Positions 3,954 to 40,213 of a stretch of 64,000 bases of DNA are shown piece after piece; positions within the stretch are counted from its first letter, which is position 1, and each line of letters begins with the position of its first letter. The translations under genes were made by a program, and so were the position numbers. Under the pieces are notes generated by a model. That model had not been told where the DNA came from. It saw only the letters and a list, made by a program, of their open reading frames with translations, and made no database searches. This stretch comes from Candidatus Aenigmatarchaeota archaeon (GTDB lineage: Archaea; Aenigmatarchaeota; Aenigmatarchaeia; Aenigmatarchaeales; JACQIB01). The DNA lies in assembly GCA_016198755.1 (NCBI GenBank), contig JACQIB010000005.1:176931-240930 (forward strand), in the 5' to 3' direction.

Positions 3954-4931
3954 ATGATAACAATGAGACTCTTGATAAAAAACAAAGATGATGTATTCCA
4001 AACTTTATTTGAAAGAACCGGCTTGACGCGCGGACAACTTGCAAAAATAATAGGTGTTAGTTACTGGACACTAAAACATTGGCTACGGGATTACACTGTA
4101 CCGGAAAAATATTTCATAAAATTAAGTCATATTTGCCCAGAAATTGAAGATATTGCAATCTGCGAAAAGCTTCCAGATAACTGGGGTGCTGTTAAGGGTG
4201 GTAAAATTTCTTTTTGTAAGAAGAGTAGGTATGCTATACTTAAACAAGCCGAAAGAGCCAGAAATGGTATAATATACAAATTTAAATCGCCTCCGTTTAA
4301 TAGAGATTTCTGCGAATTTTATGGAATATTGCTAGGAGATGGTTGTGTATTCAAATTTTTTGTAAAGAGTGAGAATCGTACCAGATATAGTGTTTCTGTA
4401 AGCGGTAATAGTATTAATGATTTAGAGTATTTCAAAAATAATATTTTACCATTAGTTAATCGCCTCTTTGGGTTGTCACCATCTATCATATATTATAGCT
4501 CTTGTAATGGTATTAGAATTGATATTAGATATAAGGTAATGGCAGATGTGTTTTTGAAGCTGGGGTTCCCTTTAGGAAAGAAAAAAGAACTTTCTATACC
4601 AAATAAGATTCTAAATTCTGGCATGATAAATATAAACAGGACAATAAGAGGTTTATTTGACACTGATGGTTGTTTTTTTGCAAGAAAAGATGAAAACTAT
4701 CTCTATCCTCATATTATGATAACGAGTTATAGTGCAAACTTGCGTAACCAGCTCGTAGAAATTTTAAAAAGACAAAACTTTCGTCCCTATATACACTCTA
4801 CAAATGTAGTTATACGAGGGAAGAAAAATATTATAAAATGGTTTGGTAAGATAGGATCGTCTCACCCTCAAATATTAAATAGATATAAGACATGGAAGCT
4901 TACAGGAAGATTATTGCCAAAGGGCCCATAG
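3954..4931 (+). CDS. LAGLIDADG homing-endonuclease-like protein with N-terminal HTH
   Basis: 325 aa; two LAGLIDADG-type motifs (FYGILLGDGCVF and IRGLFDTDGCFF) about 100 aa apart. HTH-like N-terminus (LTRGQLAKIIGVSYWTLKHWL). Visibly more AT-rich than its flanks. Stop TAG 4929..4931 lies inside tRNA-Ala. Confidence 0.8.
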   Translation: MITMRLLIKNKDDVFQTLFERTGLTRGQLAKIIGVSYWTLKHWLRDYTVPEKYFIKLSHICPEIEDIAICEKLPDNWGAVKGGKISFCKKSRYAILKQAERARNGIIYKFKSPPFNRDFCEFYGILLGDGCVFKFFVKSENRTRYSVSVSGNSINDLEYFKNNILPLVNRLFGLSPSIIYYSSCNGIRIDIRYKVMADVFLKLGFPLGKKKELSIPNKILNSGMININRTIRGLFDTDGCFFARKDENYLYPHIMITSYSANLRNQLVEILKRQNFRPYIHSTNVVIRGKKNIIKWFGKIGSSHPQILNRYKTWKLTGRLLPKGP

Positions 4932-4997
4932 ATCAATTGGAAGATCGCTACCTTCGCAAGGTAGAGGCTCCGGGTTCAAATCCCGGTGGGTCCACCA
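4922..4997 (+). tRNA. tRNA-Ala (anticodon CGC), intron-less, CCA encoded
   Basis: GGGCCCA TA GATC AATTGGAA GATC G CTACC TTCGCAA GGTAG AGGCT CCGGG TTCAAAT CCCGG TGGGTCC A CCA. Perfect 76-nt cloverleaf with the G3:U70 alanine identity pair. Confidence 0.92.
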
Positions 4998-6014: not shown

Positions 6015-6263
6015 TTATTTCAGCCTTCTTAACAGGTAGTTGTAAGCCACTGCAAAGATGTAGCCGAAAGCCAGTGCCATTGCTAATGTTCCAATCAAGC
6101 CATATGCCATTAGAGCTGGACTTGACCAGAAGCCTGGATAAAGCAGGTTTACCATAGATGGTTGTTGCATAAGTCCATGGTATACATAGCCTGCCAGATC
6201 CATTAGGAATGTTACTGCTGCAAGTGCTACTGCCATAGCTTTCGGATTTATTTCATTTCCCAT
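6015..6263 (-). CDS. small 2-TM membrane protein, unknown function
   Basis: Track ORF 6015..6389 trimmed to the internal ATG at 6263 (MGNEINPKAMAVALAAVTFLMDL...). The upstream 42 codons are antisense to tRNA-Ile. Confidence 0.45.
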   Translation of the reverse strand: MGNEINPKAMAVALAAVTFLMDLAGYVYHGLMQQPSMVNLLYPGFWSSPALMAYGLIGTLAMALAFGYIFAVAYNYLLRRLK

Positions 6264-6299
6264 GTTCTTCACCCCCAGAAATATTGGGTTGTTCTTACC

Positions 6300-6309
6300 T
6301 TTAAAAATA
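6300..6309 (+). promoter_or_regulatory. TATA box (TTTAAAAATA) about 21-30 nt upstream of tRNA-Ile
   Basis: Archaeal TATA consensus-like element at the appropriate distance from position 6330. Confidence 0.5.
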
Positions 6310-6329
6310 TGCGGCACAAACACTGAAAC

Positions 6330-6462
6330 GGCCCGATGGCTCAGACTGGTTAGAGCACCACACTGATAATGTGGGGGTCGAGAGTTCAAAGCTCAGGGGG
6401 ACGTTTCCCCCTACAGCCCTACCCCCTCTTGGTGGAGCTGGAAAATCTCTCTCGGGCCACCA
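6330..6462 (+). tRNA. tRNA-Ile (anticodon GAU) with a ~55-nt insertion in the T-loop (about position 59/60), CCA encoded
   Basis: GGCCCGA TG GCTC AGACTGGTTA GAGC A CCACA CTGATAA TGTGG GGGTC GAGAG TTCAAA[6391..6445]T CTCTC TCGGGCC A CCA. All stems pair perfectly once the bracketed block is removed. Confidence 0.85.
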
Positions 6463-14685: not shown

Positions 14686-15396
14686 TTATGCTGAGTTGGA
14701 AGGTGGGGATGTGTTGAGAGGCGGATCCAGGTCTACCACATCTGCCACAACCGCACGGGCTGTTATTGGTATGTATCCGGCAGGCCATCTTTCATAAACT
14801 TCCATTCTGCCTTTTGGGTCAATAATTATGTTAAGGGGCTGGTTGTCTTCTATAACGCGGTCAGGCTCCTCTTGCACTCTTACATATCCCATCATATTGT
14901 CATATTCTGTTTGTACAGCAGCTCTGGGATCTTGATCTGTAAACCTGTATACATAATAGGATGGTTCCCCGTTTGTATTGAGAACATAGCATCCTAAAAT
15001 AGATCCAGCTGTGATAATTTCATCAGCTCCCTTTTTAGTTTGACCAAATATTCTCCTCCAGCCCTGCTGCGCGCGCTGCCTGCTTGTTGCAAATCGTTTT
15101 AAAACTTCAGCAACATCCTGCGAAACAAACAGTCTTGGTTCCAGCTGTGAAAGATGTTGAGGCGGCCGCCAGTTTTTGCTGCCACCGCCCAGTTCAGCAA
15201 TAGCCTGCTCTATTGCTTCGTTGGATTCATACGCAAGCTTCTTCTGAAGTTCTCTCTGTCTCACAACTTCTGGAGACGCAAATATTGCCTCACGGAGTGT
15301 GAGAGCTGCATCAAAATAAGTTACTCTGGGCGGTGCAAAGGCTCCTGTGATTTCCTCAAATACAAAATCTCCGCTTGAAGCTTCCATGCAAATCAT
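14686..15396 (-). CDS. hypothetical protein
   Basis: 236 aa, soluble, no motif recognised. Alternative start MEASSGD at 15387. Confidence 0.5.
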   Translation of the reverse strand: MICMEASSGDFVFEEITGAFAPPRVTYFDAALTLREAIFASPEVVRQRELQKKLAYESNEAIEQAIAELGGGSKNWRPPQHLSQLEPRLFVSQDVAEVLKRFATSRQRAQQGWRRIFGQTKKGADEIITAGSILGCYVLNTNGEPSYYVYRFTDQDPRAAVQTEYDNMMGYVRVQEEPDRVIEDNQPLNIIIDPKGRMEVYERWPAGYIPITARAVVADVVDLDPPLNTSPPSNSA

Positions 15397-15476
15397 AGGG
15401 TATTAAAGAATTAAATAGTTGAGGGAGACGATATCACGAACAACTTAATAGGCAATTTTATTCTGTTTAAAAAACA

Positions 15477-16313
15477 TTAAACCCATGTAAAGGAAAGCGG
15501 GGAATTGCCTGAGGAAATAGTGAGCTTTACCTGTCCGGTTTCTCCTTTAATCTCGGGGAAGAAAAGTTTTCCAGTTATGTGATGGCCTCCTGGTGGGGAA
15601 CCTTCCCAGCGCAGAGGTGTATATTTATTCCCTTTATTGTCCTCAAGAACAGAATTTTTAGAAAAGTCTGAATCAAGGGAACCTGAGTGTGTGTTTACTG
15701 AAACTGAAAACACGGGGGGTTCAAGAGAAATAGGTGTGATATCATAGGATATGCTGTTTTGGCTTTCTGTAATGGTTTTAAAGGATGTTGTGGATGGGAC
15801 AAAAGTGAGTAAAATAAAGGATAGGACAATAACTGCTGGCGAGAGCATTAAAATATGGTCTCTTACAGCTTTTATGTTGTATTTTGATATAGGTTTGATA
15901 AAATCTGGAAGGGAAGAATGTTTCTTAGCTATGCTTAGGAAATGCATTATTCCGACTGCATTGGAAAGTATTCCTATTATAAGGAAAAGGGGCTGATAGT
16001 TTGAAAAAAACAGAGTTGCACCGGAAAGTCCGGCTATTGGAAGAACATCAGCAATATGATGAGCGCAGCAGGCTGCCATTGAACCTGTTGAGACTCCTCC
16101 GGTAGCTGCAATGCCTGCAACCGCTTTTTGTCTAATATAGGAAAACAAGTAGACTTGAAAGCCAAAACCTGTGATAAGAGGGAGCATAAGGTACCACAGG
16201 GAAAGGAAGCTTTCTAGAGCATGTTCAAAGCCCTGTGCTATCGAAACAATTAAAAAATAGCTGCCTATAAGGGATAGGCTGGCCACAACTCCGTAAACCT
16301 GCTCTTTTCTCAT
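15477..16313 (-). CDS. polytopic membrane protein with CCAHH motif and C-terminal extracytoplasmic beta-rich domain (GGHH)
   Basis: 278 aa. GGVSTGSMAACCAHHIADVLPIAGLSG lies inside a TM segment. The C-terminal ~110 aa (..YTPLRWEGSPPGGHHITGKLFFPE..) follow the last TM. Start overlaps the upstream stop by 1 nt. Confidence 0.55.
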   Translation of the reverse strand: MRKEQVYGVVASLSLIGSYFLIVSIAQGFEHALESFLSLWYLMLPLITGFGFQVYLFSYIRQKAVAGIAATGGVSTGSMAACCAHHIADVLPIAGLSGATLFFSNYQPLFLIIGILSNAVGIMHFLSIAKKHSSLPDFIKPISKYNIKAVRDHILMLSPAVIVLSFILLTFVPSTTSFKTITESQNSISYDITPISLEPPVFSVSVNTHSGSLDSDFSKNSVLEDNKGNKYTPLRWEGSPPGGHHITGKLFFPEIKGETGQVKLTISSGNSPLSFTWV

Positions 16314-16537
16314 TATCTCCCCTTTTTCTTTATATTGTCTACAAGGTTGCTGTGCATTGCATAGATCAGGAAAAATATTGCAAAAATTCCTGCTACCATT
16401 GCATCATAAAGGAATAACTCAGGCTGGATTAGGAATGGCTTTGTGCCTGTTGCCATAGCTGTCCATGCAAAACCATATGCTATCAAACCACAGATTACAA
16501 ATATCCAAGATATTATGCCCCATAAATTGGCTTTCAT
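16313..16537 (-). CDS. small 2-TM membrane protein
   Basis: 74 aa, two hydrophobic helices, within the operon. Confidence 0.45.
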   Translation of the reverse strand: MKANLWGIISWIFVICGLIAYGFAWTAMATGTKPFLIQPELFLYDAMVAGIFAIFFLIYAMHSNLVDNIKKKGR

Positions 16538-16548
16538 TTTATCACCTC

Positions 16549-17061
16549 CTATTCTTTGCAGCAGTCAACTATTTTTTTTACTATTTCAGAAAACTTGCCA
16601 AGTTTACTCCCCTCCAAATCATCTCCTTTAAGCTCTTTCATTTCCACAATTTTCATGTTTATTGCAAAAAACAGGGAAAATAAATTGAAAGCAAAAGAAA
16701 ACATTCTTTCAGCCTCAGCCCTGTTTTTTTGTAACTCCTTTGTGCCAACTTCCACCAACCTCATGGAAGCTGCAAGCAGGTGTTTGGAAATGCACCACTC
16801 CTCACCCTTTGGGTCGGAAACTATCTTTTTCATCAGGGTTTTCCTCATTTCCCTTGTTGAGTAAAGCATATCCAGATAAGACTGGTTTTGTGTTTTCATT
16901 GCAGTAAAATAGAAATGCTCCTCCAGACTAATCAAATTCATTAAGGCTATGCTTAGGTCCTCGTCTCTCGAGAGATCTGCGGAACCTTTTTTTGTTTCTT
17001 CTATTTTATTTAGCCAAAGGTTCTCGTCCAAAATATCACCCCAGTGCAAGCTGGAAAACAA
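16549..17061 (-). CDS. soluble helical protein ending in a CC pair (..VDCCKE), unknown function
   Basis: 170 aa from TTG 17061. An alternative TTG at 17031 lies just after the upstream stop. No known motif. Confidence 0.45.
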   Translation of the reverse strand: MFSSLHWGDILDENLWLNKIEETKKGSADLSRDEDLSIALMNLISLEEHFYFTAMKTQNQSYLDMLYSTREMRKTLMKKIVSDPKGEEWCISKHLLAASMRLVEVGTKELQKNRAEAERMFSFAFNLFSLFFAINMKIVEMKELKGDDLEGSKLGKFSEIVKKIVDCCKE

Positions 17062-17575
17062 CGCTTGCAGCCGCTAATACTCCAACAGTAAGCAAAACTC
17101 CCTGGAAAGGGAATAAAACCTTTCCATATAGCTCCTTTATTTTTAAGTGGAGCTTGAAAGCAAACAATGTTATTCCTACTCCAAAAACAGAACCGAAAAG
17201 GAGCTTGTCTACCCAGTAAATTTTGTTGAATACAGAACCTATTTCTCCGAAAAGCTTTACTGGTATGTAAACATTCTCCTGCACACCAACAAGCAGGATA
17301 GAAGGTATGACTGTCAGTGCATAGGAAAGTATAAGTATAATCGGGAGCTGATATCTGAAATATTCTTTTTTTATCAATCTTGCAACCCATAAACCTGAGG
17401 AAATTGCAAGCGCACCTGCCAATAAACCAACAATAGTTATATCAAATCCGAAAATCTTCGCAGAAGCTACAGCCATTCCTACTGCACCAACGCATAGTGG
17501 GCAGTGTGCAAAAGCTGGTGCACCTGAAAGAATAAAAGCTAAAAAAGCTGGAATTGCAATAAGCATTTTCCTCAT
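17036..17575 (-). CDS. polytopic membrane protein with N-terminal HCPLC motif
   Basis: Track ORF (GTG 17581) trimmed to ATG 17575: MRKMLIAIPAFLAFILSGAPAFAHCPLCVGAVG...; about 5 TM segments. Confidence 0.5.
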   Translation of the reverse strand: MRKMLIAIPAFLAFILSGAPAFAHCPLCVGAVGMAVASAKIFGFDITIVGLLAGALAISSGLWVARLIKKEYFRYQLPIILILSYALTVIPSILLVGVQENVYIPVKLFGEIGSVFNKIYWVDKLLFGSVFGVGITLFAFKLHLKIKELYGKVLFPFQGVLLTVGVLAAASVVFQLALG

Positions 17576-17577
17576 GT

Positions 17578-18063
17578 TCACAGCCTCATAAACAAGCCCT
17601 GAACCTGCCCATCTGAAACAGAATAAATTTCAAGGGGCTGGCTCTTGTAACCTGGCATTCCAGGAGAACCCGAAGGCATTCCGGGAAGGGCTATACCGTC
17701 TATTTTTGGCTTTTCTTCCAGCAGTTTCTTTATTGCCTCTGCAGGAATATGTCCTTCAATAAAATAACCTCCTATCTTTGTTGTATGGCAGGTGCGGAGG
17801 TTGGATGGTATGTTTAGCTCATTGTTTATCTGGTCTGTGGTTTGAACCTGTACAGGTTTAACTGGCACTCCAGAATCCCTTAGGTAGCCAATATAGTTAC
17901 CGCAGCAACCGCAGCTCTGTGAATAATAGACCTCGGCAGGGTTGCCCGCAAAAACAGACTGAGTTGCAGTTGCTTGGGCCGTTGAATTAGAGAAGGAAAA
18001 GGCAAAAAACAGACCTGCACCAACCAGCACCACTAATGTTACTATAGCCCACAGCCACTTCAT
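17578..18063 (-). CDS. membrane-anchored DUF411/CopG-family metal-binding protein
   Basis: Trimmed to MKWLWAIVTLVV (ATG 18063). SCGCCGNYIGYL (CxCC) ... RTCHTTKIGGYFIEGHIPAEAI ... GMPSGSPGMPG matches the DUF411/CopG signature. Confidence 0.75.
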   Translation of the reverse strand: MKWLWAIVTLVVLVGAGLFFAFSFSNSTAQATATQSVFAGNPAEVYYSQSCGCCGNYIGYLRDSGVPVKPVQVQTTDQINNELNIPSNLRTCHTTKIGGYFIEGHIPAEAIKKLLEEKPKIDGIALPGMPSGSPGMPGYKSQPLEIYSVSDGQVQGLFMRL

Positions 18064-18064
18064 T

Positions 18065-18325
18065 TTAACATCCCCCAACCATTTGTGAACCTGTACCCTG
18101 AGACTGTGCAGCAACCTGATCTGGATGCATTCTTGCCATCATATCAGTGTAACTTTCTGCTCCAGCAGACTGTACAGAACTTCCAGCTAAAACATTGCCT
18201 GTTGGACCAGATTTCTTCAGCTCAATTATTTGAAAGGATTGGAACATTGATATAACTAAAAGGAGTACAACCATTGAAAGGGTTATGTAAATCTTCCAGT
18301 TAGCTTTTGATAATTCCTCTCCCAT
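18065..18325 (-). CDS. small membrane-anchored Met/His-rich protein ending in MVGGC
   Basis: Trimmed to ATG 18325: MGEELSKANWKIYITLSMVVLLLVISMF...ESYTDMMARMHPDQVAAQSQGTGSQMVGGC*. Confidence 0.5.
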   Translation of the reverse strand: MGEELSKANWKIYITLSMVVLLLVISMFQSFQIIELKKSGPTGNVLAGSSVQSAGAESYTDMMARMHPDQVAAQSQGTGSQMVGGC

Positions 18326-18327
18326 TT

Positions 18328-19029
18328 TTAACACCCCCCCACCATGCTTGAACCACCAGTGCCTTTCTCTATTCCCCTATACTTGTTAGAAGCAAGGTTA
18401 ATGTAATTTAGCTCAATTCCCTTGTCTTTCAGTATTTTTGCCTTTGCAGCTGTTGGTCCTGGGAAAAACAGAGTTTTCCACTTTCCTAACTCATCAAGTA
18501 TCTGGTCATTTGTATACTCGCTCCCGTGATTCTTTAACAGGTATTTTGCCAACCCTCTCATAGCATAGCTGTGTGCGCATCCGCAAGCTGCATTACCGTT
18601 TGGAAAAATAATGGAAGCTGCTCCACAACAATATTCACAGCTTATCCTGCCTGCGATGTCTATATACCTTGTCATTTCTTCTGCACTGAGCGTTATCTGA
18701 TCATCAAGAACACCAAGCTTGTTTATTGTTGCATCGGCCTTTTGGGGGTTTGTTACAGAAACATCATCAAAGCTCACCTTCAGCTCTTCTCCATATATAG
18801 AAGGAACCCCTTTTGGAGCTACATCTATTCCAGATACTTGGGACTGCTGTATTTGGGTAGTTGAAACTACCGAAGATATTACATTTCCTGTAACCGTATT
18901 AGATACGGAAGCTGTAGCCAAGCTGTTCTTTTCTCCTACAAGGCTGTTTATTTGCATGGTGTTGAACCCAACTATAAACAGGGCAGCTATCATAAGCCCA
19001 AAGCTTATCCTTTCCAATTCTTCTGACAT
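18328..19029 (-). CDS. membrane-anchored Cys-cluster protein (CEYCCG...CGCAHS) ending in MVGGC
   Basis: 233 aa; N-terminal TM. ISCEYCCGAASIIFPNGNAACGCAHSYAMRGLAKYLL is reminiscent of PCYCGC-type motifs. C-terminus GTGGSSMVGGC*. Confidence 0.5.
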   Translation of the reverse strand: MSEELERISFGLMIAALFIVGFNTMQINSLVGEKNSLATASVSNTVTGNVISSVVSTTQIQQSQVSGIDVAPKGVPSIYGEELKVSFDDVSVTNPQKADATINKLGVLDDQITLSAEEMTRYIDIAGRISCEYCCGAASIIFPNGNAACGCAHSYAMRGLAKYLLKNHGSEYTNDQILDELGKWKTLFFPGPTAAKAKILKDKGIELNYINLASNKYRGIEKGTGGSSMVGGC

Positions 19030-19085
19030 GAAACCCTATGAAAAGAAACAGTGTATATACCTACTACTGAAACTGGTTTCATTAC

Positions 19086-19577
19086 CTATTTCAGTACAAT
19101 AATGTTAGTCATTCCCCTTCTCTTTCTCTCTAAAATATCCTTTAGCTCAAGCCTGTCAAGTATCCTTGTGACTTTTACCTTGCCAAACCCTGTATCAGCT
19201 ATTATATCTGTCTGGAAGGCTGAACCGCCTTTATTTTTTATAGTGTTATATACCTTTTTTTCCTCGTCTGCAAGTATAGAAAGGTCAAATAGTTTGAATT
19301 CTTTCTTCTCTGAGCCAATAGAAATTTTTGGCATAAATACCATATAACCTCCTAAACCGAGCACAAGAAAACCAACACCAAATGAAGAAAGTATAAACCA
19401 TGAGGCATTGCTTGTATGCACTGGGCAAGTTTTCATATCTAGGTTGTTCTTCTGGTACTGATCACACAAGAGTCCTGACTGGAAGTCATAGTCAAGCTTT
19501 ACAAATGTAAGTACAAAGAGCAGGATTATGGAAAATCCTATAAGCAACGATCCCAGAGTTTTGGAGTTTACATCCAT
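19086..19577 (-). CDS. membrane-associated winged-helix transcriptional regulator (2 TM plus C-terminal wHTH)
   Basis: 163 aa; two TM helices flank a Cys-containing loop (LLCDQYQKNNLDMKTCPVH). C-terminal EEKKVYNTIKNKGGSAFQTDIIADTGFGKVKVTRILDRLELKDILERKRRG is a MarR/ArsR-like wHTH (COG2512-like architecture). Confidence 0.6.
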   Translation of the reverse strand: MDVNSKTLGSLLIGFSIILLFVLTFVKLDYDFQSGLLCDQYQKNNLDMKTCPVHTSNASWFILSSFGVGFLVLGLGGYMVFMPKISIGSEKKEFKLFDLSILADEEKKVYNTIKNKGGSAFQTDIIADTGFGKVKVTRILDRLELKDILERKRRGMTNIIVLK

Positions 19578-19671
19578 GGTTCTTAGTGTATATAGAATGC
19601 TTTTAAAGGTATAGTATACACTTGGGAAGTGGCCTTATAATTTGGACCTTAAGTGTCGAAATACTTGCTGT

Positions 19672-22828: not shown

Positions 22829-24025
22829 ATGAAAATAGCCATATTCTCAGATTGCCATATGGGTTTTGATTATGGGGGACCAAGGGGAGAAGATAGTTTT
22901 TCCGCCTTTGAAGAAGCTTTGGAAAAGAGCAAAGATGCGGACATGATTCTTGTTGCAGGAGACTTATTTGATATGAGAGTTCCTAGGCAGGAGGTTTTTG
23001 CGCGCGGTGCAAGAATACTTAGTAGGGTCAGGGAATGGGACGGAGGGGCAAAATTTGAGAGTATTATAGGGAAGAAAGCGGAAGATGTTTCGCCGCTTAG
23101 CCTGAAAGGGAAGCCTATGGTTGTTATAAGCGGAAACCATGATCGCAGGTCTCCACATTTAACAAATCCTGTTCAGGCACTGGAGCATGCTGGTTTACTT
23201 CTACATTTGCACTGTTCCACGGCTGTGTTTGATATAGAAGGTAGGAAAGTTGCTGTTCATGGAATGAGCGCTGTGCCTGAAAGGTATGCGAAGGAAGTTT
23301 TGCTGTCTTGGAACCCCAAGCCACTGGAAGGGGCTGTAAATATTTTCCTTATACACCAGAATATTGACCCCTATATTTTTAACCCATTGGAGCCGCCTTC
23401 TCTAAAACTTGAGGATTTGCCTATAGGTTTTGATTTGTATGTCATGGGTCACCTGCATTGGAATGATACGCAGAGATTCAGGGGCAAGAATCTTCTGGTA
23501 GCTGGTTCGACAACTCCAACAGGGCTGCACAAGATTGAGGCTGAGCAGAAAAAGGGAGTTTTCTTTTTCAACGGAGAATATCTGGATTTTTCACCTTTGA
23601 TAAAGCAGAGAAAAATTTTCTGGGAAGATGCTTACCTTTCACCGACAATTAAGGAAGATATGGATAGAACTATAGGAAAGATTGTTTCTGCTGAAACCGG
23701 AAAGCCCATTATTGTAATTAAGGTAAAGGGAAAGCTGCCTATTGGTGCCCATGTTCCAAGTTTCAGGGATATAGAATTAAAGTATGATGAAAAAGCGTTG
23801 CTGTATATTTACACAAACTTGGAAGGGCAGGAATTTGAAAGCCAGCTTGATCTCATTAAATCCCTTAGGGAACAGAGACTTTCCCCCGAAGAGTATGGTT
23901 TGCAATTGTTAAAGGAAAATCTAATGCAGGCGAAGTGCGGTATAAAGGTGGAGGATATTTTTGAACTGCTAGTGGAAGGACAGACAGAAGAGATTTATAG
24001 CGGTATTGTGGGTGGGAACAAATGA
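22829..24025 (+). CDS. mre11: DNA double-strand break repair nuclease Mre11
   Basis: 398 aa; calcineurin-like motifs (IFSDCHMG, AGDLFD, GNHD, GHLH). 4-nt overlap with rad50. Confidence 0.88.
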   Translation: MKIAIFSDCHMGFDYGGPRGEDSFSAFEEALEKSKDADMILVAGDLFDMRVPRQEVFARGARILSRVREWDGGAKFESIIGKKAEDVSPLSLKGKPMVVISGNHDRRSPHLTNPVQALEHAGLLLHLHCSTAVFDIEGRKVAVHGMSAVPERYAKEVLLSWNPKPLEGAVNIFLIHQNIDPYIFNPLEPPSLKLEDLPIGFDLYVMGHLHWNDTQRFRGKNLLVAGSTTPTGLHKIEAEQKKGVFFFNGEYLDFSPLIKQRKIFWEDAYLSPTIKEDMDRTIGKIVSAETGKPIIVIKVKGKLPIGAHVPSFRDIELKYDEKALLYIYTNLEGQEFESQLDLIKSLREQRLSPEEYGLQLLKENLMQAKCGIKVEDIFELLVEGQTEEIYSGIVGGNK

Positions 24026-26394
24026 TAAAGAAAATATCGCTAAAAAACTGGAGGTCTCATTCTGATACTGAGCTGGTTTTTTCAGATGGAACAAATGCGC
24101 TTATTGGGCTTATGGGAGGCGGGAAGAGCTCTGTGCTTTCCGGCATATGCTTTGGGTTGTTTGGAACTTTTCCGGAGCTGCAGAGCAGGAAAGTAAAGCT
24201 GGAAGATGTTATAATGAAAAAGCCAAAAGAACAGAAACAGGCTGAAATTTCCGTGGTCTTTGATTTGGGAGATGGCATTGACTGGACTGTTAAGAGGGTT
24301 ATTTCAAAGGGAAAAAGTACGGAAGCTGAGCTTAGGAAAAACGGACAGATAGTAGAAGCACAGGTACAGAAAGTAAACGAAGATGTGGAACGATTATTGA
24401 AAATAAATTATGACCTGTTTACCAGGGCAATATACAGCGAACAGAACCAGATAGATATGTTTCTTACAATACCAAAAGGACAGAGAATGAAAAAGATTGA
24501 TGAAATTCTGGCTATAGACAGGTTTGAAAAAGCTAGGACAAGCACAAAAACTCTGGGTGGAAGAGTCAGGCTGTCTGCCGATGAAAAGAAGACCATTATA
24601 CAGGAACTTGAGAAGGATTCTGCTGTTCAGATGTTATCCGGATTAAAGAGTTCTATTGAAACTCTCAGGAAAGAAAAGGAAAGAATAGAGCAACAGCTGA
24701 AAACAGCCAAGAACAGGAGAGCGGATTTGGAAAGGGGTATAGATGAAGTTAGGAGAAGAGAAAAGGAAAGGAGAGAAATAGAGGACGGAATGAAAAGTTT
24801 TACGGCTCTTATAGAAGCTGTGGAAGAGGAAATAGACAAACTAAAAGAAGATCTTATGGATTTTGTTGAGAAAACTGATGAAGAGATTGGAGAAGGGTTT
24901 CAGGAAAAGAAAAAAGAATTAGAAGGGTTGGAAAGGGAGGTGGAGGATGAAAACAGAAAGTTGTTGTCATTAAAAGAAATGCTGGGAAATAAACAGGGAA
25001 AATTGGCTGGTATGGAAGAGAAAATACCTGAAACGAGGAAAAAAATAAAAGAAAAGGAAGAATTGGAAAAAATACTGAAAAGGGGTGGGGTAAAGAAGGT
25101 TCTTGGAGAAATAGAAAAGAAGAGGGGAGAACTTGAGAAATCTGCAGCAGCTGTTCAGGCAGGCATAGAAAGAATTGCTGAAGCTGAAGAAGGTCTGAGA
25201 GAAATAAAGCGGGTTGAAAGCATTTGCCCTATATGTGATAATCCTCTGGGTGATAAGAAGAAAGAAAATATAATAGAAAGGAAAGAAAAACTTATATCAA
25301 AATTAAAGCTGGATGTAGAACATGGTGGGGATAGGGCTGAAAAGTTGAGGGTTGAAATAAAAGATCTGGAGAAAGAACTAAAAGAAGTTGAAAATATTGA
25401 GTTTAAGCTTTCGCAGCTGGAAACTGTTGGAGCTGAGTTAAAGTTTTTGGTGGACGCTGTTAAACAGTTCAAATTGGATATACAGCAGATTAATACAGAA
25501 GTTAAGATGGCTGAAAAAGCGCAGGGATTGTTTAAAGGGAGGTATGAAACTCTGAGAAATGAGTATGATAATATAAAGAGGGTTCTGGAAAAGAGAGCTG
25601 AACTTTCAGGAAGGGTTAAGAGGAGAAAGGAAATAGAAACAAATATTATAGGTTTGCAGGAAAAATCACAGAGGCTTGGCCCTCTTGGCTCGCTGAGCGC
25701 AGAAAGCATGGAAAGGGAATTACAAACTGCTATTGGATTTGAGAGCGCCGCTTCTGTAAGAATAGAAACATTGGGGGACAATATAAAAGAAAAAGAAACG
25801 ATTTTGGTTGAAACTGAAAAGAAAATGGAAACAATAGAGAAGATAAGGGCTGAAAGCATTAAGATGGAAACTATAGCTGAACAGCTTGTTCTTTTGGAAA
25901 GTTCCCTGCTTGCAACACAGGAGCAGCTAAGAAGGTATTTTGTTTCTGCTGTGAATCAGGCTATGGGCCTTGTTTGGCAGAACCTTTATCCTTATGGGGA
26001 TTTCAAATCCTGCAGGCTTGGGATAGAGGAGGGGGATTATATTTTGCAGTTACAAGATTCAACTGGATGGATTCCTGTGGATGGTGTAGCCTCTGGAGGA
26101 GAAAGATCTATAGCTGCTTTGGCACTGAGGATTGCTTTCGCCCTTGTTCTGGCTCCGCAGCTGCGCTGGCTTATTTTAGATGAACCAACCCATAATCTGG
26201 ATGAAAAGGCAACGCAGGAACTGGCTGCTGTATTGAGAGATAGGATTTCAGAGTTTGTGGAACAGGTTTTCCTTGTAACACATAACCCTGAAATGGAGAA
26301 TGCTGTTTCAGGATATTTGTATAGGTTTGAGAGAGCTAAAGAAAAGGACGAACCCTCGCGTGTTACAATGATAAGCGGGCCGCAGCTCACATGA
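24022..26394 (+). CDS. rad50: DNA double-strand break repair ATPase Rad50
   Basis: 790 aa; Walker A GLMGGGKSS, long coiled coil with CPIC zinc hook, signature SGGERS, Walker B LILDEPT. Confidence 0.9.
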   Translation: MIKKISLKNWRSHSDTELVFSDGTNALIGLMGGGKSSVLSGICFGLFGTFPELQSRKVKLEDVIMKKPKEQKQAEISVVFDLGDGIDWTVKRVISKGKSTEAELRKNGQIVEAQVQKVNEDVERLLKINYDLFTRAIYSEQNQIDMFLTIPKGQRMKKIDEILAIDRFEKARTSTKTLGGRVRLSADEKKTIIQELEKDSAVQMLSGLKSSIETLRKEKERIEQQLKTAKNRRADLERGIDEVRRREKERREIEDGMKSFTALIEAVEEEIDKLKEDLMDFVEKTDEEIGEGFQEKKKELEGLEREVEDENRKLLSLKEMLGNKQGKLAGMEEKIPETRKKIKEKEELEKILKRGGVKKVLGEIEKKRGELEKSAAAVQAGIERIAEAEEGLREIKRVESICPICDNPLGDKKKENIIERKEKLISKLKLDVEHGGDRAEKLRVEIKDLEKELKEVENIEFKLSQLETVGAELKFLVDAVKQFKLDIQQINTEVKMAEKAQGLFKGRYETLRNEYDNIKRVLEKRAELSGRVKRRKEIETNIIGLQEKSQRLGPLGSLSAESMERELQTAIGFESAASVRIETLGDNIKEKETILVETEKKMETIEKIRAESIKMETIAEQLVLLESSLLATQEQLRRYFVSAVNQAMGLVWQNLYPYGDFKSCRLGIEEGDYILQLQDSTGWIPVDGVASGGERSIAALALRIAFALVLAPQLRWLILDEPTHNLDEKATQELAAVLRDRISEFVEQVFLVTHNPEMENAVSGYLYRFERAKEKDEPSRVTMISGPQLT

Positions 26395-27898
26395 AAGCCT
26401 TTGCATCTTTCATTTTTTCTGAATGGTTTCCAGAGAACTCCAAACAGGCTTCCTCAAGAGGAATTCCTTTGTCTGTTTTCTTGCTTCTCCTCTCCCTTAT
26501 CTTTAGAAACAGTGGGTAATTAACAGCCTCCCCCACAATCAGAGCTTCGCCAACTCTGAGAGAGGAAATTGTTTTTAAAACATCAGCTGTTAGGCCTTCG
26601 GAACTTTTCCCTATATGGTCCAAATCATAGGGGTTTGTTACTCTCAAAATCATGTGGGAGTTGCACTGGCTGAGAGCTGTGGTAGAGAGCTGGATAGGAC
26701 GCTGGGAAATTAGGCAGAGGCAAGCGTGGAATTTTCTGCCTTCGCGCGCTATTCTCTCAATAATGTTCCTGCTTATTGCACCTTCTCTATGAACTCCTTC
26801 AGGAGCAAACTGATGCGCTTCCTCCACAATCAAAAGGAAGGGGGGTATTGCAGAAACCATTCTGGCTTGGAACAATTTTCTTGCCAAGTAAGTTACAACA
26901 ATCTGCTTTTCCTTCTGGTTTGTCATATCTGAAATATCTATAACAGTAAAATGCCCTGGACGGGCAAGTTTATCCAGAGAAGGGTTATCATAGCTTGCGA
27001 ACAAATTTGTGCTGTCCAGATCGTAAATATAGGTATAAAGTATATTGCGTGTATCTGATTTTTTTATTATTTCATCTGTTTCAAGTTTTTGCAAAACATC
27101 CCTGAAATCGAAAGGCTTTCCCCTGCGTTCCTCGTTTATAAGGGATAAGAGCCTGTTAAGTTCCCTCTTTTGAACAGCACTCATGTCTGGAACAAGCTCA
27201 GCAACCATTGCTGCTGTTATCCCAGGTACTCCTATCCTAAAATCTTTTCCTTCTATGACATCAGCTTTATCAGAGTAGCGCTTGTCCTCTGAAAAGCCTG
27301 TATATTCCCCGTGGGTATCTATTGCAATAACAGCAATCTGCCCGTTTTCAGGGCTTCTGTCCAAAAGTTCCTCTATAAACACAGAAACTCCATAGGATTT
27401 TCCGGAACCGCTTATACCGAGTATTGCTGTGTGTTTCTGCAGCAAACGGGTCATGTTAAGCCTTACAGGTAGAGAGTGGTGCTCTACTGTTCCCAGCTCA
27501 AGTCCTTTCTCTAAGTCCAGCCCAAAGAATTTTGACAAAAGATCGTTCTCAGCCATAAAAACCTTTGATCCAGGAGAAGGTGGAAAAGCTGAGCGCTGCA
27601 GCCTGCCTTCATTATAAACCCCTAGGGAAAGAGCCTCTGCAACAAGATACTCCCAGCGCTCTGCAGGAAACATTTCTGCTAAAGGCCTTCCGGAACGCTC
27701 AAATTCCCTGACACTTTCTGCACGCTCAAAGTACCTGTTAGTTTTTATTATGTCTGCTATTCTTGCCACAACCTTTCCCTCAGCTGTATCAACAGTAACA
27801 AACTGACCCTTTCTGGCAGATGAAGAAACAATAAATGCAAACTCAGAGGAGTTTGGATTGCCTTCTGTTGAAATAACTGTTCCTAAAGGTTCTGGCAT
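26387..27898 (-). CDS. herA: HerA-type hexameric DNA helicase/translocase (DUF87 ATPase)
   Basis: 503 aa; N-terminal barrel region, Walker A GISGSGKSYG, Walker B LLIVEEAHQF. Convergent with rad50; 3' ends overlap by 8 nt. Confidence 0.85.
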   Translation of the reverse strand: MPEPLGTVISTEGNPNSSEFAFIVSSSARKGQFVTVDTAEGKVVARIADIIKTNRYFERAESVREFERSGRPLAEMFPAERWEYLVAEALSLGVYNEGRLQRSAFPPSPGSKVFMAENDLLSKFFGLDLEKGLELGTVEHHSLPVRLNMTRLLQKHTAILGISGSGKSYGVSVFIEELLDRSPENGQIAVIAIDTHGEYTGFSEDKRYSDKADVIEGKDFRIGVPGITAAMVAELVPDMSAVQKRELNRLLSLINEERRGKPFDFRDVLQKLETDEIIKKSDTRNILYTYIYDLDSTNLFASYDNPSLDKLARPGHFTVIDISDMTNQKEKQIVVTYLARKLFQARMVSAIPPFLLIVEEAHQFAPEGVHREGAISRNIIERIAREGRKFHACLCLISQRPIQLSTTALSQCNSHMILRVTNPYDLDHIGKSSEGLTADVLKTISSLRVGEALIVGEAVNYPLFLKIRERRSKKTDKGIPLEEACLEFSGNHSEKMKDAKAFM

Positions 27899-36643: not shown

Positions 36644-39600
36644 TTACTCTGGAGAAGGTTCAAAGCCGCCTGAGGTTGTCGGTGGGAGGGTTGTAGGGGC
36701 TGCTGGAGCTGGGGGTGCGCCTCCGAACAACATAGCTAGGAAGCCGCCTGCGAATTTGTCTTTATCGCCAGCCTGCTTGTCCAGAAGGTCAGCCTGAACA
36801 TTCAGCTCCTGTATTTGAGCCTGTAAAGCAGCCTTGGCATCTAAGTTTGTGGATGCATCAAGCACAAGGTTTAAGCTGGATCCAATATCCCTTAGCTTCT
36901 GTGCACGCTCCTTCAATAATAGAGCATCTTTCTTTTCCTGATCAGCAACCATTCCAAAGAACTGCTGTATTGCATAGCCTATGTCCTTTGACTTGTTCTG
37001 TACTTCCTCTATATCAGCAGTTGTCTGTATAATATCCCTTTCGTTCTCTGTTACGTGTGCATCAAGTGAATCTGGTATTTTATCCAAATCTTTTAATGCT
37101 TCCAGCCTCTGTAGGTAACGATCCTTGTCTGTAATTTTTCCTGAAGCTCCCTCATCAGGTCCTGCAAGGCTCATATGATCTACTGTAACATCATCTACAA
37201 ACTCAAGCCTCCTTAGGTTTGCTAAGTTTGCTGCTTTTGCAGTTGCCCTGTAAATATAGGTTGTTGAAACCTTTAGAGGAGCATCATCAAACTTTATCGT
37301 CAAAGCCCTTATCTTTGAGAGCTCATCTGATTTTAGCTTGGCAGAGCTTGCTATAACAACTGGCAGGTTATCTCCAACAGACTTTGCATCCCTTATTTTT
37401 GGCTTGTAAGCCTTTAGGTCGCACAAGTTCTTTACAACATTATCTGAAACTTTCTCAGCAATAAGTTCTGGTTTGAACTTCTCTGGATCGCAGCTTGCAG
37501 CCTTTTCCTTGACTTTAACACAGAACTTTGGAAGTTGATCACAAATAAAACCTTTCTGCTTTGTCAGGGATTCACAAAGTTGAGCTGGTGTTGGACCTCC
37601 AAACCCTCCTCCTGAACCTCCATAACCGAAGCTGCCTCCTCCATAACCGCCTCCTGATGGTGGAGCAAAGCCTCCTCTTTCATATCCGCCCTGATAACCC
37701 TGTGGTGGACCTCCTGAACTACCTGGTGGATATCCGCCCTGTCCTCCTGGACCGCCAAATCCTCCTTGGCCACCGAAGTCACCACCTGGTGGGAATCCTC
37801 CTGGACCTGGCTGGCCTCCAAACCCTCCCTGTCCGCCTGGACCGCCTGGACCTCCGAAGTCACGACCCTGATCACCGAAACCGCCTGGAGGTGGACCAAA
37901 TCCTCCTTGTCCTCCAAATCCTCCTTGGCCACTGCCGCCTTGTCCACCACTACCCTGTCCGCCTGGACCGCCTATCTGCTGCCCTGTTGGACCGCCAGAA
38001 CTTGGGAAAGAAGGATATTTGCCTGCACAAGCCTCAGAAGCAGCTTTTGTTATTTCTGAACAGCCTCTAACAAGTTCGCTTGAACATTTCTCAGCCCCAT
38101 TCTTTAACTCATCGCACATGTTCTGTATTCCTGGACCCTGTGAAAATTCAAATACTGCCCTTTCCTTTACTTTTTCTTTGAAATCATCTGGATGTGCACA
38201 AACATAATTAACAGCATCTGGAGGCATTTCTGACTTTATGCCGCGTAGTGCCTCTTCTGACATAAATTGAACTGGATCTGATAATAGTAGTTCAGGAGGC
38301 AGTTGAGGTTCTCCAAACCCTCCTCCAATTGTTGGAGGTCCAAATCCTGGTTTGTTTGGTCCGCCTGTAAAGTCTGTTGTTCTTGGAGTGCTGCAGCCTG
38401 TAAGCTTTTCAAGTTCATCTGTGCTGAATATCTTCTCGTATCTTTGCCCACCTATGAACCATGTTGGACTGCCTGTTCCTTCATTTGGTCTAGTAGAACC
38501 ATAACAGCATGTCTTTATCTGCTTTGCAGCGCAGCTCGCCTCATCAACATTGCAATTTACAGCAAAACCAAGGTTCCTCATTATTTCAAACCCAGGTCCT
38601 AGCATATCTATCTGTTTCCTGCTCTCATCATTGGAAGTGTAATAAAACTCTACCTGAGCCTTCTTTATACAGGAAGAAATCCTGTTTATCTCCTGTGGAG
38701 GCAATGGCGCTGAACAAGCTCCTGGCCTTGCACCGCCAACATCACCACAGCACCAAGTTCTTGCTGCAGGGTCAAAAGTAGGCTTATCCAAACCTGTTGC
38801 AGCTGGACAGAAAAACCCTGGTGGAGGCTTTATCTTGTCAGGTCTTTCTGAGAAGCAGTCTGACTGACATGACCTTTCCTCTCCTGGCTCACACTTGTTA
38901 TTTCCACAGACAGAATATCCCTTACAATCCTGTTGACAATTGTATGGACCTTCTCCCTCTCCACATACTCCATCACCGCACTTTATTGTGTTTTCAAAGC
39001 CACCATTATCCCCCCCTCTTCTACCAAAGTCTTTTGTACAGTCCTTTGGACATGAAAAATCATTTTCATTTGGATATTCGCATATAGCATTGCCGCAGAA
39101 TGATTGAGGCTTTTCCTGGATTGTAGGACATGGACTACTTGTACAATATCCATTTCCTGATGAAGGACACCAATTTGCACCCCTTACACCGCTGCATTCT
39201 GCTTGGCTGTGACAGTTCCATGGCTGCTCGCTTGTACACTGATTATATGATGTAATTGATGGGCTTCCTCCACCAGAGGTTCCACATTCATTTTGACTAT
39301 AATATTGATTATATTGACCTGATCCTGTACTTGAACAACAATAACCAGCATCTGTTACAAATCCGCCTCCGCAATTGCATTTGGAAGTTATTTTACCTAT
39401 AGAACAGATTGGATATTGACCAGATGTTGTGCTTGGATATCCCGGTGTACCAGGACCTGAACAAATTCCGCCTGAACAAAAGCCAGATGAGCACTCGTTA
39501 TTTAGGGAACAGCTTTGTCCATTTGATTTGGGTCCTGTGCCACCGCCGCAATAGGTTGTGCTTTCGCAGCCATTATCATGCCTCTGATCACAGTTGTAAT

Positions 39601-40213
39601 AGCCTGCGTTGCAATAGTTTACAATACATACCCCATTTTGCATCATCCCCTTTGCATTTGGAACTGAACATTCACCCCCGCCTCCTGCTGTGCCTGTGCC
39701 GCATGCTGTAGTTTGATAAATATTAGAACAGCAGTAACCTGAGGCATATGTTGTTCCGCCGCAGGAACAGCTGGCAGATATTGGACCTGAACTGCAGAAG
39801 TTTCCAGTTGTTGTAGTTGAGCTGGAAGTTGGTGAGGTTCCGCCGGCACATACTCCATTTGAACAAGTTCCGGAATAACATTGTGAATTAGAAGCACACT
39901 GAGCTCCTTCAGTTCTTAGTTGAGATGTACTGGTTGTGCTAGAAGAAGTTGTGGATGAGGATGTAGTTGAGCTGGATGTAGAAGTGGAGGTTGAAGTGGA
40001 TGTAGAGGTTGAAGAAGAGGTTGTGGATGAGGAAGTTGGCTGGCCTCCACTGGAAACGCAAACTCCACCTGAACAGCTGTTTGATAAGCATTCTGAGTTT
40101 TGGATACATGTTTGACCTTCTGATTTTTGTTGGGCAAAAGCAACCGCAGACATTGAAAATGAAACTACAAAGAAAACTGCTATGGCAATAAGTGCAAAAT
40201 TCCTACAGCCCAT
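36644..40213 (-). CDS. giant secreted Cys-rich surface protein, paralogue 1
   Basis: 1189 aa; N-terminal signal/anchor, Ser/Thr linkers, Cx6Cx4Cx4C knots, CGxGxCExGE..C..DC repeats, a Gly/Gln/Phe-rich disordered block and a conserved C-terminal module shared with 58580..62779. Confidence 0.8.
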   Translation of the reverse strand: MGCRNFALIAIAVFFVVSFSMSAVAFAQQKSEGQTCIQNSECLSNSCSGGVCVSSGGQPTSSSTTSSSTSTSTSTSTSTSSSTTSSSTTSSSTTSTSQLRTEGAQCASNSQCYSGTCSNGVCAGGTSPTSSSTTTTGNFCSSGPISASCSCGGTTYASGYCCSNIYQTTACGTGTAGGGGECSVPNAKGMMQNGVCIVNYCNAGYYNCDQRHDNGCESTTYCGGGTGPKSNGQSCSLNNECSSGFCSGGICSGPGTPGYPSTTSGQYPICSIGKITSKCNCGGGFVTDAGYCCSSTGSGQYNQYYSQNECGTSGGGSPSITSYNQCTSEQPWNCHSQAECSGVRGANWCPSSGNGYCTSSPCPTIQEKPQSFCGNAICEYPNENDFSCPKDCTKDFGRRGGDNGGFENTIKCGDGVCGEGEGPYNCQQDCKGYSVCGNNKCEPGEERSCQSDCFSERPDKIKPPPGFFCPAATGLDKPTFDPAARTWCCGDVGGARPGACSAPLPPQEINRISSCIKKAQVEFYYTSNDESRKQIDMLGPGFEIMRNLGFAVNCNVDEASCAAKQIKTCCYGSTRPNEGTGSPTWFIGGQRYEKIFSTDELEKLTGCSTPRTTDFTGGPNKPGFGPPTIGGGFGEPQLPPELLLSDPVQFMSEEALRGIKSEMPPDAVNYVCAHPDDFKEKVKERAVFEFSQGPGIQNMCDELKNGAEKCSSELVRGCSEITKAASEACAGKYPSFPSSGGPTGQQIGGPGGQGSGGQGGSGQGGFGGQGGFGPPPGGFGDQGRDFGGPGGPGGQGGFGGQPGPGGFPPGGDFGGQGGFGGPGGQGGYPPGSSGGPPQGYQGGYERGGFAPPSGGGYGGGSFGYGGSGGGFGGPTPAQLCESLTKQKGFICDQLPKFCVKVKEKAASCDPEKFKPELIAEKVSDNVVKNLCDLKAYKPKIRDAKSVGDNLPVVIASSAKLKSDELSKIRALTIKFDDAPLKVSTTYIYRATAKAANLANLRRLEFVDDVTVDHMSLAGPDEGASGKITDKDRYLQRLEALKDLDKIPDSLDAHVTENERDIIQTTADIEEVQNKSKDIGYAIQQFFGMVADQEKKDALLLKERAQKLRDIGSSLNLVLDASTNLDAKAALQAQIQELNVQADLLDKQAGDKDKFAGGFLAMLFGGAPPAPAAPTTLPPTTSGGFEPSPE
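37585..38005 (-). repeat. degenerate coding low-complexity repeat (GGQGGFGGPGG-type)
   Basis: Encodes GGPTGQQIGGPGGQGSGGQGGSGQGGFGGQGGFGPPPGGFGDQG...GGSGGGFGGP. The nucleotide level shows reiterated ggacc/ggtgg/cctcc units. Confidence 0.8.

Follow-up and report, generated by a model that had tools for sequence, protein, structure and literature searches.

An eight-gene operon of an Aenigmarchaeota archaeon encoding Cys-, His- and Met-motif envelope proteins with a probable role in copper(I) handling

Results

Eight adjacent minus-strand genes, here called g1 to g8, were analyzed in a 64-kb stretch of DNA (64,000 nt, hereafter the window) from a Candidatus Aenigmarchaeota metagenome-assembled genome (positions 15477-19577; NCBI locus tags HY362_04605 to HY362_04640). 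We conclude that they probably form one transcription unit that senses, buffers and relays copper(I) at the envelope of this single-membrane DPANN archaeon, copper being indicated by context. A previous sequence-only reading of the window had proposed a self-contained envelope system for the handling of metal (probably copper) or for thiol-redox chemistry. The synteny and the copper-gene context of related loci supported a single operon whose envelope proteins handle a soft metal, with copper as the most probable one. The locus is a composite, consisting of a core g1-g2-g3-g5-g6, an occasional g4, and g7-g8.

Organization and expression signals of the operon

All eight open reading frames (ORFs) of the sequence-only reading were confirmed. 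Four start codons were moved after comparison with aligned homologues, with the lengths of the genes in a sister genome and with the positions of Shine-Dalgarno-like sequences, so that g3 starts at 18325 (86 aa), g4 at 18063 (161 aa), g5 at 17575 (179 aa) and g6 at a TTG codon at 17031 (160 aa), the last in agreement with the NCBI annotation. After this correction the spacing from g1 to g8 is 56, 2, 1, 2, 4, 11 and -1 nt, which bears out the dense packing described before, and the junction of g7 and g8 is a stop/start overlap, TAATG. The identical eight-gene order was found in a sister genome (locus L089; related loci are designated by L and a number), with identities from 64% (g8) to 94% (g1). 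Conservation of this order indicates that the arrangement is under selection and did not arise by chance. The L089 copy is flanked by genes for prolyl-tRNA synthetase and a proteasome beta subunit.

A putative archaeal promoter was read upstream of g1 (19578-19620, minus strand), with a TATA-like box, TTTAAAA, 23 nt upstream of the g1 ATG. The 10-mer TATATACACT lies between this box and the ATG (19585-19594, minus strand), and a second exact copy (19050-19059) lies in the 56-nt spacer between g1 and g2 (19030-19085, minus strand), 22-31 nt upstream of the g2 ATG. The window contains three exact copies of TATATACACT, the third at 4788-4797 on the plus strand, and an estimate of chance occurrence allowing one mismatch was not significant. 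The spacer copy may be an internal promoter or operator, and TATATACACT in general may be an operator or a TATA element. The sequence GGAGGTGAT stands ahead of g7. Immediately 3′ of the g8 stop codon is a T-rich stretch, TGTTTTTTAAA, which includes a run of six T residues (15460-15476, minus strand) and is likely the transcript end; oligo-T terminators are established in archaea.

At their 3′ ends, g2 and g3 share almost the same DNA, ATGGTnGGGGGnTGTTAAAA(A)TG (18323-18350 and 18061-18085, minus strand), indicating that the Val-Gly-Gly-Cys codons double as a G-rich ribosome-binding stretch for the next gene. The Val-Gly-Gly-Cys tail is still kept in relatives that have different downstream genes. 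Taken together, the TATA-like box, the Shine-Dalgarno-like sequences, the T run and the gene overlap are as expected for, and suggest, one archaeal transcript with coupled translation.

When all eight products were scanned against Pfam and NCBIfam at E<=1, matches were obtained only to DUF7343 (g1) and DUF411 (g4); g2, g3, g5, g6, g7 and g8 matched no model in either database. Profile searches of the Protein Data Bank (PDB) with g5, g6 and g8 and fold searches with g6 and g8 likewise gave nothing significant, in agreement with the previous statement that the parts other than DUF411 and the helix-turn-helix protein could not be assigned to characterized families.

Distribution of the module and its association with copper genes

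We compared the eight window proteins with 85 loci anchored on relatives of g8 (80 fetched and 5 read earlier). Relatives of g1 were present in 27 of these loci, of g2 in 19, of g5 in 21 and of g6 in 15. The order g1-g2-g3-g5-g6 recurs in DPANN archaea (Woesearchaeota, Nanoarchaeota and Aenigmatarchaeota), with g8 usually a few genes further on. All three loci anchored on g6 carried g1-g2-g3-g5-g6; two also had CopA, one of those with a split g8, and the third (L087) had the core module among housekeeping genes, with neither CopA nor g8 and with g1 divergently oriented. The co-occurrence test that could have refuted the sequence-only reading therefore came out in its favour, synteny of g1, g2, g3, g5, g6 and g8 being kept in many genomes of DPANN archaea.

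All ORFs of the 85 loci were then clustered, and the frequent families were named with Pfam. Within 10 kb of the g8 relatives, 41 P-type ATPases were found in 40 of the 85 loci (47%), often directly adjacent. The signatures of 37 of these ATPases were CPC, Nx6YNx4P and MxxSS, the marks of subgroup P1B-1, the Cu(I)/Ag(I) pumps, as classified by Argüello; three were of CPH type and none was of Zn/Cd/Pb type. Many of these pumps carry HMA domains with GMTCxxC or TRASH/YHS domains with DPVCGM. PadR regulators with a TRASH domain were found in 18 of the 85 loci, CsoR in 7, several of them directly upstream of g8, and secreted Met- and His-rich proteins in 10. The neighbours of the relatives also included HMA proteins, YHS proteins, a multicopper oxidase and a cupredoxin. 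By our own estimate, a copper pump would be expected in roughly 1-2% of random 20-kb segments. The observed frequency of 47%, together with the CsoR, TRASH and Met-rich neighbours, indicates that copper, or possibly silver, is the best-supported substrate.

No DKTGT motif was found in any frame of the window, which therefore encodes no P-type ATPase pump, and the HMA and Trns_repr_metal profiles matched none of the eight products. The earlier description of the system as self-contained, with no P1B-ATPase nearby, thus holds for the window; it fails for the relatives, which stand beside Cu(I)-type P1B ATPases and in some cases a multicopper oxidase or cupredoxin.

The cluster of Diapherotrites locus L109 reads g1, cupredoxin, a 72-aa gene, g2, g3, a Met-rich protein, PCYCGC, a small TRASH protein, g5, g8, g6, a 206-aa membrane gene and CopA. 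Here g8 lies inside the module, between g5 and g6, and the TRASH protein ends in S-C-C-G. The cupredoxin (L109:7218-7571) is a lipoprotein, and the presence of the PCYCGC-family protein (PF13798; L109:9489-9890) inside the cluster places this uncharacterized family in a copper context.

Another family was noticed in loci L018, L023, L039, L044, L045, L068, L071 and L074 (e.g. L045:4468-5043). Its members are secreted, C-terminally anchored proteins of about 190 aa with extreme Met-Gly repeats, an HPGEAHE motif and no Pfam match, and in about 10 DPANN loci the gene separates the module from g8. It looks like a further undescribed Cu(I)-binding protein.

A variant cluster was observed in Aenigmatarchaeota loci L027, L046, L057, L068 and L071 (e.g. 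L068:7442-10678), in which a beta-rich anchored protein with G-H-H-G at its end takes the place of g2, and a four-transmembrane (four-TM) protein with the sequence K-I-C-A-I-C-A that of g6. The four-TM protein ends in a Cys-Cys tail in L047 and L070, and C-terminal Cys-Cys tails recur on unrelated proteins in the variant loci.

The regulator and the anchored extracytoplasmic proteins

All motifs quoted in the sequence-only reading were present in the products, and the key ones were conserved in homologues. From hydropathy and charge, the loop of g1, the domains of g2, g3 and g4 and the HCPLC motif of g5 are predicted to lie outside the membrane.

The g1 product (19086-19577, minus strand; 163 aa) is a predicted membrane-tethered transcription regulator, with a first TM segment, an outer loop, a second TM segment and a cytoplasmic DUF7343 winged helix. 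The two TM segments and the basic C-terminal part were read from hydropathy, and residues 103-162 matched Pfam DUF7343 (PF24034) with 42.5 bits against a cut-off of 27.6; scores with the MarR and TrmB profiles were under their cut-offs. The outer loop carries the motif C38...C51-P-V-H54, whose Cys pair and His are conserved in nearly all of 28 homologues. We propose g1 as a candidate metal sensor of the system.

The g2 product (18328-19029, minus strand; 233 aa) consists of an N-terminal TM anchor, a linker, an extracytoplasmic domain and a flexible M-V-G-G-C tail. The pattern C131-x-x-C134-C135...C149-x-C151-x-H153 was found in 120 of 120 close homologues, and the invariant core reads C-E-Y-C-C-G...C-x-C-x-H-S. 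A G-[GSA]-C terminus was found in 80 of the 120 close homologues and in 116 of 149 representatives. The family comprises 2087 clusters at 90% identity and 306 at 50%, and the matches listed were all hypothetical DPANN proteins; the 306 relatives came from a profile search against 1.84 billion representatives, and the best 150 of the 306 were inspected. Among the ten longest proteins of the family, one had an FKBP domain (E=3.6e-12), and the other matches were below Pfam thresholds and uninformative. Twenty-one members scanned singly gave no family match, and none matched PF13798 at E<=1. Comparison of g2 with PDB sequences returned only chance-level matches, including an Hsp70 stretch at E=0.006 on the g2 linker.

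The Cys pattern of g2 loosely recalls that of the PCYCGC family, small secreted proteins with a cysteine cluster (C-x-C-G-C...H...C). Membership of g2 in this family was rejected, because g2 and 20 relatives did not match PF13798 and an hhalign comparison with the PCYCGC protein of L109 gave a probability of 0.2%.

The g3 product (18065-18325, minus strand; 86 aa) is a small single-pass protein, with M62-M63-A-R-M66-H67 in its outer part, that ends in M-V-G-G-C like g2. Homologues were found at the equivalent position in about 10 loci, and the Woesearchaeota versions have additional (D/E)CC motifs on the cytoplasmic N-terminus.

The g4 product (17578-18063, minus strand; 161 aa) is a TM-anchored DUF411/CopG-type protein. 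It matched Pfam DUF411 (PF04214) over profile positions 1-48 of 48 with 87.9 bits (cut-off 27; E=3.6e-25). A match to Pseudomonas aeruginosa CopG (PDB 6WIS; E=1.3e-18) aligned the ligand motifs CGCC, CH(T), EGH and PGMPxGSPGM, and by these alignments g4 qualifies as a true CopG homologue. CopG is reported to contain a Cys-bridged tetranuclear copper cluster, to be a copper (Cu-thiol) oxidoreductase and to have a part in copper resistance (PMC8456105, citing Hausrath 2020). The closest known proteins are thus CopG and the DUF411 protein CutG of R. capsulatus. Like CopG, g4 is placed in a copper-related gene cluster and has the ligand motifs; unlike CopG, it is tethered by a predicted N-terminal TM helix in a host without periplasm, and its location outside the membrane is predicted.

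DUF411 adjoins g5 in six loci only (the window, L089, L010, L015, L047 and L090), and about 15 further module loci lack it. A metagenome scan for g4 relatives returned mostly unrelated DUF411 genes on short contigs, with g5 adjacent in 1 of 19 (L090). These results indicate that g4 is an optional accessory insert in the module and not its core, and the earlier idea of a system built around DUF411 was abandoned. The likeness to CopG accounts for one of the eight genes, not for the whole system.

The g5 and g6 products

The g5 product (17036-17575, minus strand; 179 aa) is a polytopic membrane protein with a signal-peptide-like N-terminus ending in A-x-A, followed at the outer face by H24-C25-P-L-C28. 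The sequence A-H-C-P-x-C, with Leu or Ile at x, was invariant in 17-19 homologues and contains the single C-x-x-C of the protein. Ahead of the His, all 19 homologues have Ala at -1 and Ala, Val, Thr or Ile at -3, a pattern that fits the signal-peptidase rule. Mature g5 would then start with His-Cys-Pro-Leu-Cys at the outer face, cleavage being suggested by these residues. A profile of the family found nothing meaningful in the PDB, the TM helices of APP being matched at chance level.

If g5 is cleaved, its N-terminal His and two Cys residues would resemble the Ni-hook of nickel superoxide dismutase (NiSOD; H-C-x-x-P-C); the histidine brace of CopC and lytic polysaccharide monooxygenases (LPMOs) is another metal site with an N-terminal His. 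The spacing differs: the NiSOD hook has C-x-x-x-C, whereas g5 has C-x-x-C (H-C-P-[LI]-C), and unlike NiSOD, CopC and LPMOs g5 is a polytopic membrane protein of an unrelated family. Two other candidate relationships of g5 were rejected. An hhalign comparison with the DsbD_TM proteins encoded near g8 relatives (14 proteins) gave a probability of 0.5% for a DsbD/CcdA relationship; the other relationship rejected was one to the four-TM CxxC protein that stands in for g6 in the variant clusters.

The g6 product (16549-17031, minus strand; 160 aa), predicted to be cytoplasmic from hydropathy and charge, is a four-helix-bundle protein whose tail ends in D-C-C-K-E. It is the most conserved member of the module and is always encoded close behind g5. 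The family comprises 7859 clusters at 90% identity, all unnamed, and is about 70% identical across DPANN phyla. H39, C80, H84 and many acidic residues are invariant, and a CC within the final 8 residues was found in 120 of 120 family members. An AlphaFold2 model (predicted local distance difference test, pLDDT, 84.3) showed four long helices and a separate C-terminal helix and tail. When this model was compared with the PDB by Foldseek, the best match had E=0.42 and the matches were generic four-helix bundles (sulerythrin, sensor domains); the family profile returned nothing from PDB sequences.

The g7 and g8 products

The g8 product (15477-16313, minus strand; 278 aa) has five TM helices and a C-terminal extracytoplasmic beta-sandwich, an arrangement also seen in its AlphaFold2 model (pLDDT 88.7). 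In the family alignment, the third helix carries the invariant sequence M79-x-A-C82-C83-A-H85-H86-x-x-D89. Q53, P92, G95, Q107 and N118 are also invariant, and Q53, Q107 and N118 lie on neighbouring helices. The sandwich carries T208-H209 and G-G-H244-H245. CCAHH was found in 115 of 120 family members and G[GE]HH in 110 of 120. A ligand-rich intramembrane site is typical of ion-translocating proteins, a comparison of our own, and g8 is predicted to carry such a site, with Met, Cys-Cys, His-His and Asp on one helix. Foldseek comparison of the model with the PDB gave no match at E<1e-3, only generic beta-sandwiches (DUF4426), and the family profile gave nothing significant against PDB sequences. 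A cryptic relationship of g8 to DsbD/CcdA was rejected, as hhalign against the same 14 DsbD_TM neighbours gave a probability of 8%.

A scan for the motif M[IVA]ACCAHH in one genome per species identified 550 species genomes with a g8 relative, spread over many archaeal and bacterial phyla. In a number of bacteria, Chloroflexi and Nitrospirae among them (e.g. L056, L059, L080-L083 and L085), g8 is split into adjacent separate genes, one for a membrane part of about 180 aa and one for a beta-sandwich of 150-170 aa, the latter often with a lipoprotein-like G-C-S-S signal. The separation into adjacent genes shows that the two domains work together. Genes for Lgt, NfeD and ICMT were found near the split loci, and the lipoprotein-like signal on the split sandwich accounts for Lgt being so often a neighbour. 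In three of the five variant loci described above (L057, L068 and L071), g8 was observed without the sandwich.

The g7 product (16313-16537, minus strand; 74 aa) is a small two-TM protein translationally coupled to g8 through the TAATG overlap. The only relatives found were the sister protein in L089 (70% identity) and one weak match in L063. Small two-TM genes of other families stand directly upstream of g8 relatives, namely DUF5676 in 9 loci and DUF2933 in L001. Assignment of g7 to DUF5676 (PF18926) or DUF2933 (PF11666) was rejected, since there was no match at E<=1 and no alignment with the DUF5676 neighbours; g7 is like these partners in position and two-TM shape only.

Other features of the window

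Two giant secreted Cys-rich proteins are encoded at 36644-40213 (minus strand, 1189 aa) and 58580-62779 (minus strand, 1399 aa), with 5.8% and 6.4% Cys, respectively, compared with a window mean of 2.0%. The sequence-only reading had considered the operon as a machinery serving such surface proteins. The giants lie 17-40 kb away from it, and their homologues are unlinked to the module elsewhere, with one weak match in 89 loci, and the link was rejected on these grounds.

The interval from g8 to the proteasome beta gene holds an ORF of 236 aa (14686-15396, minus strand). L089 lacks a counterpart of this ORF, its proteasome gene coming directly after g8, and the ORF is either a lineage-specific insertion or not a gene. 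At 22829-27898 there is a Mre11/Rad50/HerA-like gene set beside proline biosynthesis and prolyl-tRNA synthetase genes; this call rests on N-terminal sequences and on the Pfam labels of L089, where the Rad50-like gene was called as two pieces. ARAGORN placed a tRNA-Ile at 6328-6405 (plus strand), overlapping the ORF 6015-6389 (minus strand), which is therefore probably not a gene. Among tRNAs, Rfam at the gathering threshold reported tRNA-Ala at 4922-4994 only. An archaeal signal recognition particle RNA is also present in the window, in agreement with the assignment of this DNA to an archaeal genome.

Discussion

Proposed copper(I) relay

The invariant residues are almost all Cys, His, Met or Asp, which fits the ligand chemistry of Cu(I); CC, CxC and CxxC motifs are typical Cu(I)-thiolate ligands. 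We propose that the outer Cys...Cys-Pro-x-His loop of g1 would sense the metal and that its winged helix would adjust expression of the operon. At the outer membrane surface, g2 and g3, and g4 where present, would capture and buffer Cu(I); g2 and g3 would make use of their flexible Met-Val-Gly-Gly-Cys arms and would provide ligands of the thiolate, Met and His type. Ligand exchange would move Cu(I) from site to site. The outer sites would be connected to the cytoplasmic face, or to the exit of CopA, by g5 with g6 and by g8 with its small partner, and g4 would add an optional CopG-type copper oxidoreductase layer. The metal, the direction of its flow and every contact between partners in this scheme are what we infer, unlike the operon structure, synteny, motifs, predicted topology and copper-gene association reported above.

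Several observations weigh against this interpretation. There is no pump, CopZ or CsoR in the 64 kb of the window, and in at least one relative (L087) the core module stands alone among housekeeping genes; the module may act without CopA, or do something else. Genes that fit thiol or sulfur chemistry just as well were also found around g8 relatives, namely DsbD_TM (18 loci), thioredoxin-like (15), CcmH (12), CcmF (11) and rhodanese (8) genes. Vicinal Cys pairs are classic ligands of Hg(II) as well, and the structure models of g8 and g6 had no informative match in the PDB.

A bolder version of the copper relay, which we regard as possible but doubtful, is that the g1-g2-g3-g5-g6 module and g8 form an undescribed trans-envelope relay that is widespread in DPANN and able to work without an ATP-driven pump, the g8 family being a general, unnoticed partner of CopA in several hundred bacterial and archaeal species. 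Cu(I) would then be passed between swinging Cys-terminated arms, Met-Val-Gly-Gly-Cys outside and Asp-Cys-Cys-Lys-Glu inside, and the processed His-Cys-Pro-Leu-Cys hook of g5 and the Cys-Cys-Ala-His-His site of g8 would take part.

Comparison with known copper systems

The relatives' module resembles classical cop/cue/cus loci (CopA, CopZ, CsoR/CueR, CueO, CusF) in that it adjoins CopA-type pumps, CsoR, HMA and TRASH proteins and a multicopper oxidase, and hand-over of Cu(I) among Cys, Met and His sites is the common principle. Unlike those loci, however, g2, g3, g5, g6, g7 and g8 are not homologous to CopZ, CusF, CopC/D, PcoE or CueO, the window is without a pump, and the regulator is a membrane-tethered winged helix and not CsoR, CueR or CopY. 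Both hallmarks of a CopA-centred efflux operon, an ATPase with DKTGT and CPC and a known chaperone or sensor, are lacking in the window and present in related loci.

Alternative interpretations

The operon could instead encode an extracytoplasmic thiol-disulfide system, in which reducing or oxidizing power would pass from g6 to g5 to g8 and on to the outer g2, g3 and g4, as an analogue of DsbD/CcdA that keeps surface cysteines in the right state. This is the main alternative, and we consider it unlikely. In its favour, thioredoxin-like/DsbD_TM gene pairs were found close to g8 or to short paralogues of g2 in about 15-18 loci, and 11-12 bacterial loci have CcmH and CcmF in the vicinity of g8. 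Surface proteins very rich in Cys are encoded in the genome, and CopG has been described as a Cu-thiol oxidoreductase (PMC8456105). The operon also shares with the DsbD/CcdA-thioredoxin systems, including ScsB/ScsC, Cys pairs on both sides of the membrane. However, no homology was detectable, as hhalign to DsbD_TM gave only 8% for g8 and 0.5% for g5. The Cys pair of g5 is single and faces outward, whereas transfer of the DsbD type, according to textbook knowledge, needs membrane cysteines reachable from both sides; a thioredoxin fold is found in g4 only, and in other genomes the Cys-rich surface proteins show no linkage to the module. Among the neighbours, Cu(I) pumps and Cu sensors stand out as the strongest and most specific. 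In addition, it is textbook knowledge that Trx/CcdA pairs, such as Scs, commonly aid copper tolerance, and their presence is therefore no argument against copper. A pure thiol-redox role thus appears less likely.

A quite improbable alternative is a relay for detoxification or uptake of another thiophilic metal or metalloid (Hg, Ag, Cd or As), with hand-over through vicinal cysteines as in MerP-MerT-MerA. The vicinal CC of g2, g6, g8 and g4 recalls MerT, MerF and the C-terminal CC of MerA, as known from textbooks. With the Mer relay (MerP, MerT/MerF, MerA) the operon shares a working principle, again from textbook knowledge, in the vicinal Cys within a TM helix (g8) and in a flexible C-terminal arm (g6), and in an outer metal-binding protein that delivers to a membrane protein. 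A MerT-HMA gene was present in one related locus, S-adenosylmethionine-dependent methyltransferase and ICMT-type genes lie near g8 relatives, and P1B-1 pumps export Ag(I) too. Nevertheless, there is no sequence relation to Mer proteins, since none of the eight products gave a Pfam or NCBIfam Mer match at E<=1, and there is no reductase among the eight genes. MerA, MerB and ars genes were not seen in the loci whose annotation was read, a part of all loci. The surrounding genes are for copper and not for mercury: the pumps belong to the Cu(I)/Ag(I) and not to the Zn/Cd/Pb class, and copper is also what CsoR, the cupredoxin, the multicopper oxidase, the Met-rich proteins and CopG indicate.

Handling of reactive sulfur species (persulfide, sulfide) is highly improbable. 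In this reading the CsoR-family neighbours would sense persulfide as CstR does, and sulfane sulfur would be carried on the Cys-Cys sites. Rhodanese (8 loci), YgaP-like TM (8), DUF302 (9) and CsoR-family (7) genes do lie near g8 relatives, but they are far less frequent than Cu-ATPases, and the window has none of them. Sulfur transfer has no use for the conserved Met/His ligands, CopG, cupredoxin or Met-rich proteins, and persulfide dioxygenase and TusA were not seen in the loci whose annotation was read.

Implications

The interpretation that we prefer is the copper(I) operon. A copper homeostasis locus is, as a kind, already known; five or six of the families in this one are undescribed, and the literature that we searched made no mention of them. 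At least five conserved families have invariant Cys/His/Met motifs with no Pfam or NCBIfam model, and no solved structure was found for them. Copper homeostasis has been studied mainly in two-membrane bacteria and a few model archaea. The module, present in several DPANN phyla, is a large unknown gene block in very small genomes, and because it is kept in organisms with such genomes, its function must be important for them. With small soluble domains and obvious proposed ligands, the predictions can be tested directly. The g8 family is a concrete candidate for a step on the outside of a single membrane in which copper would be accepted from CopA or delivered.

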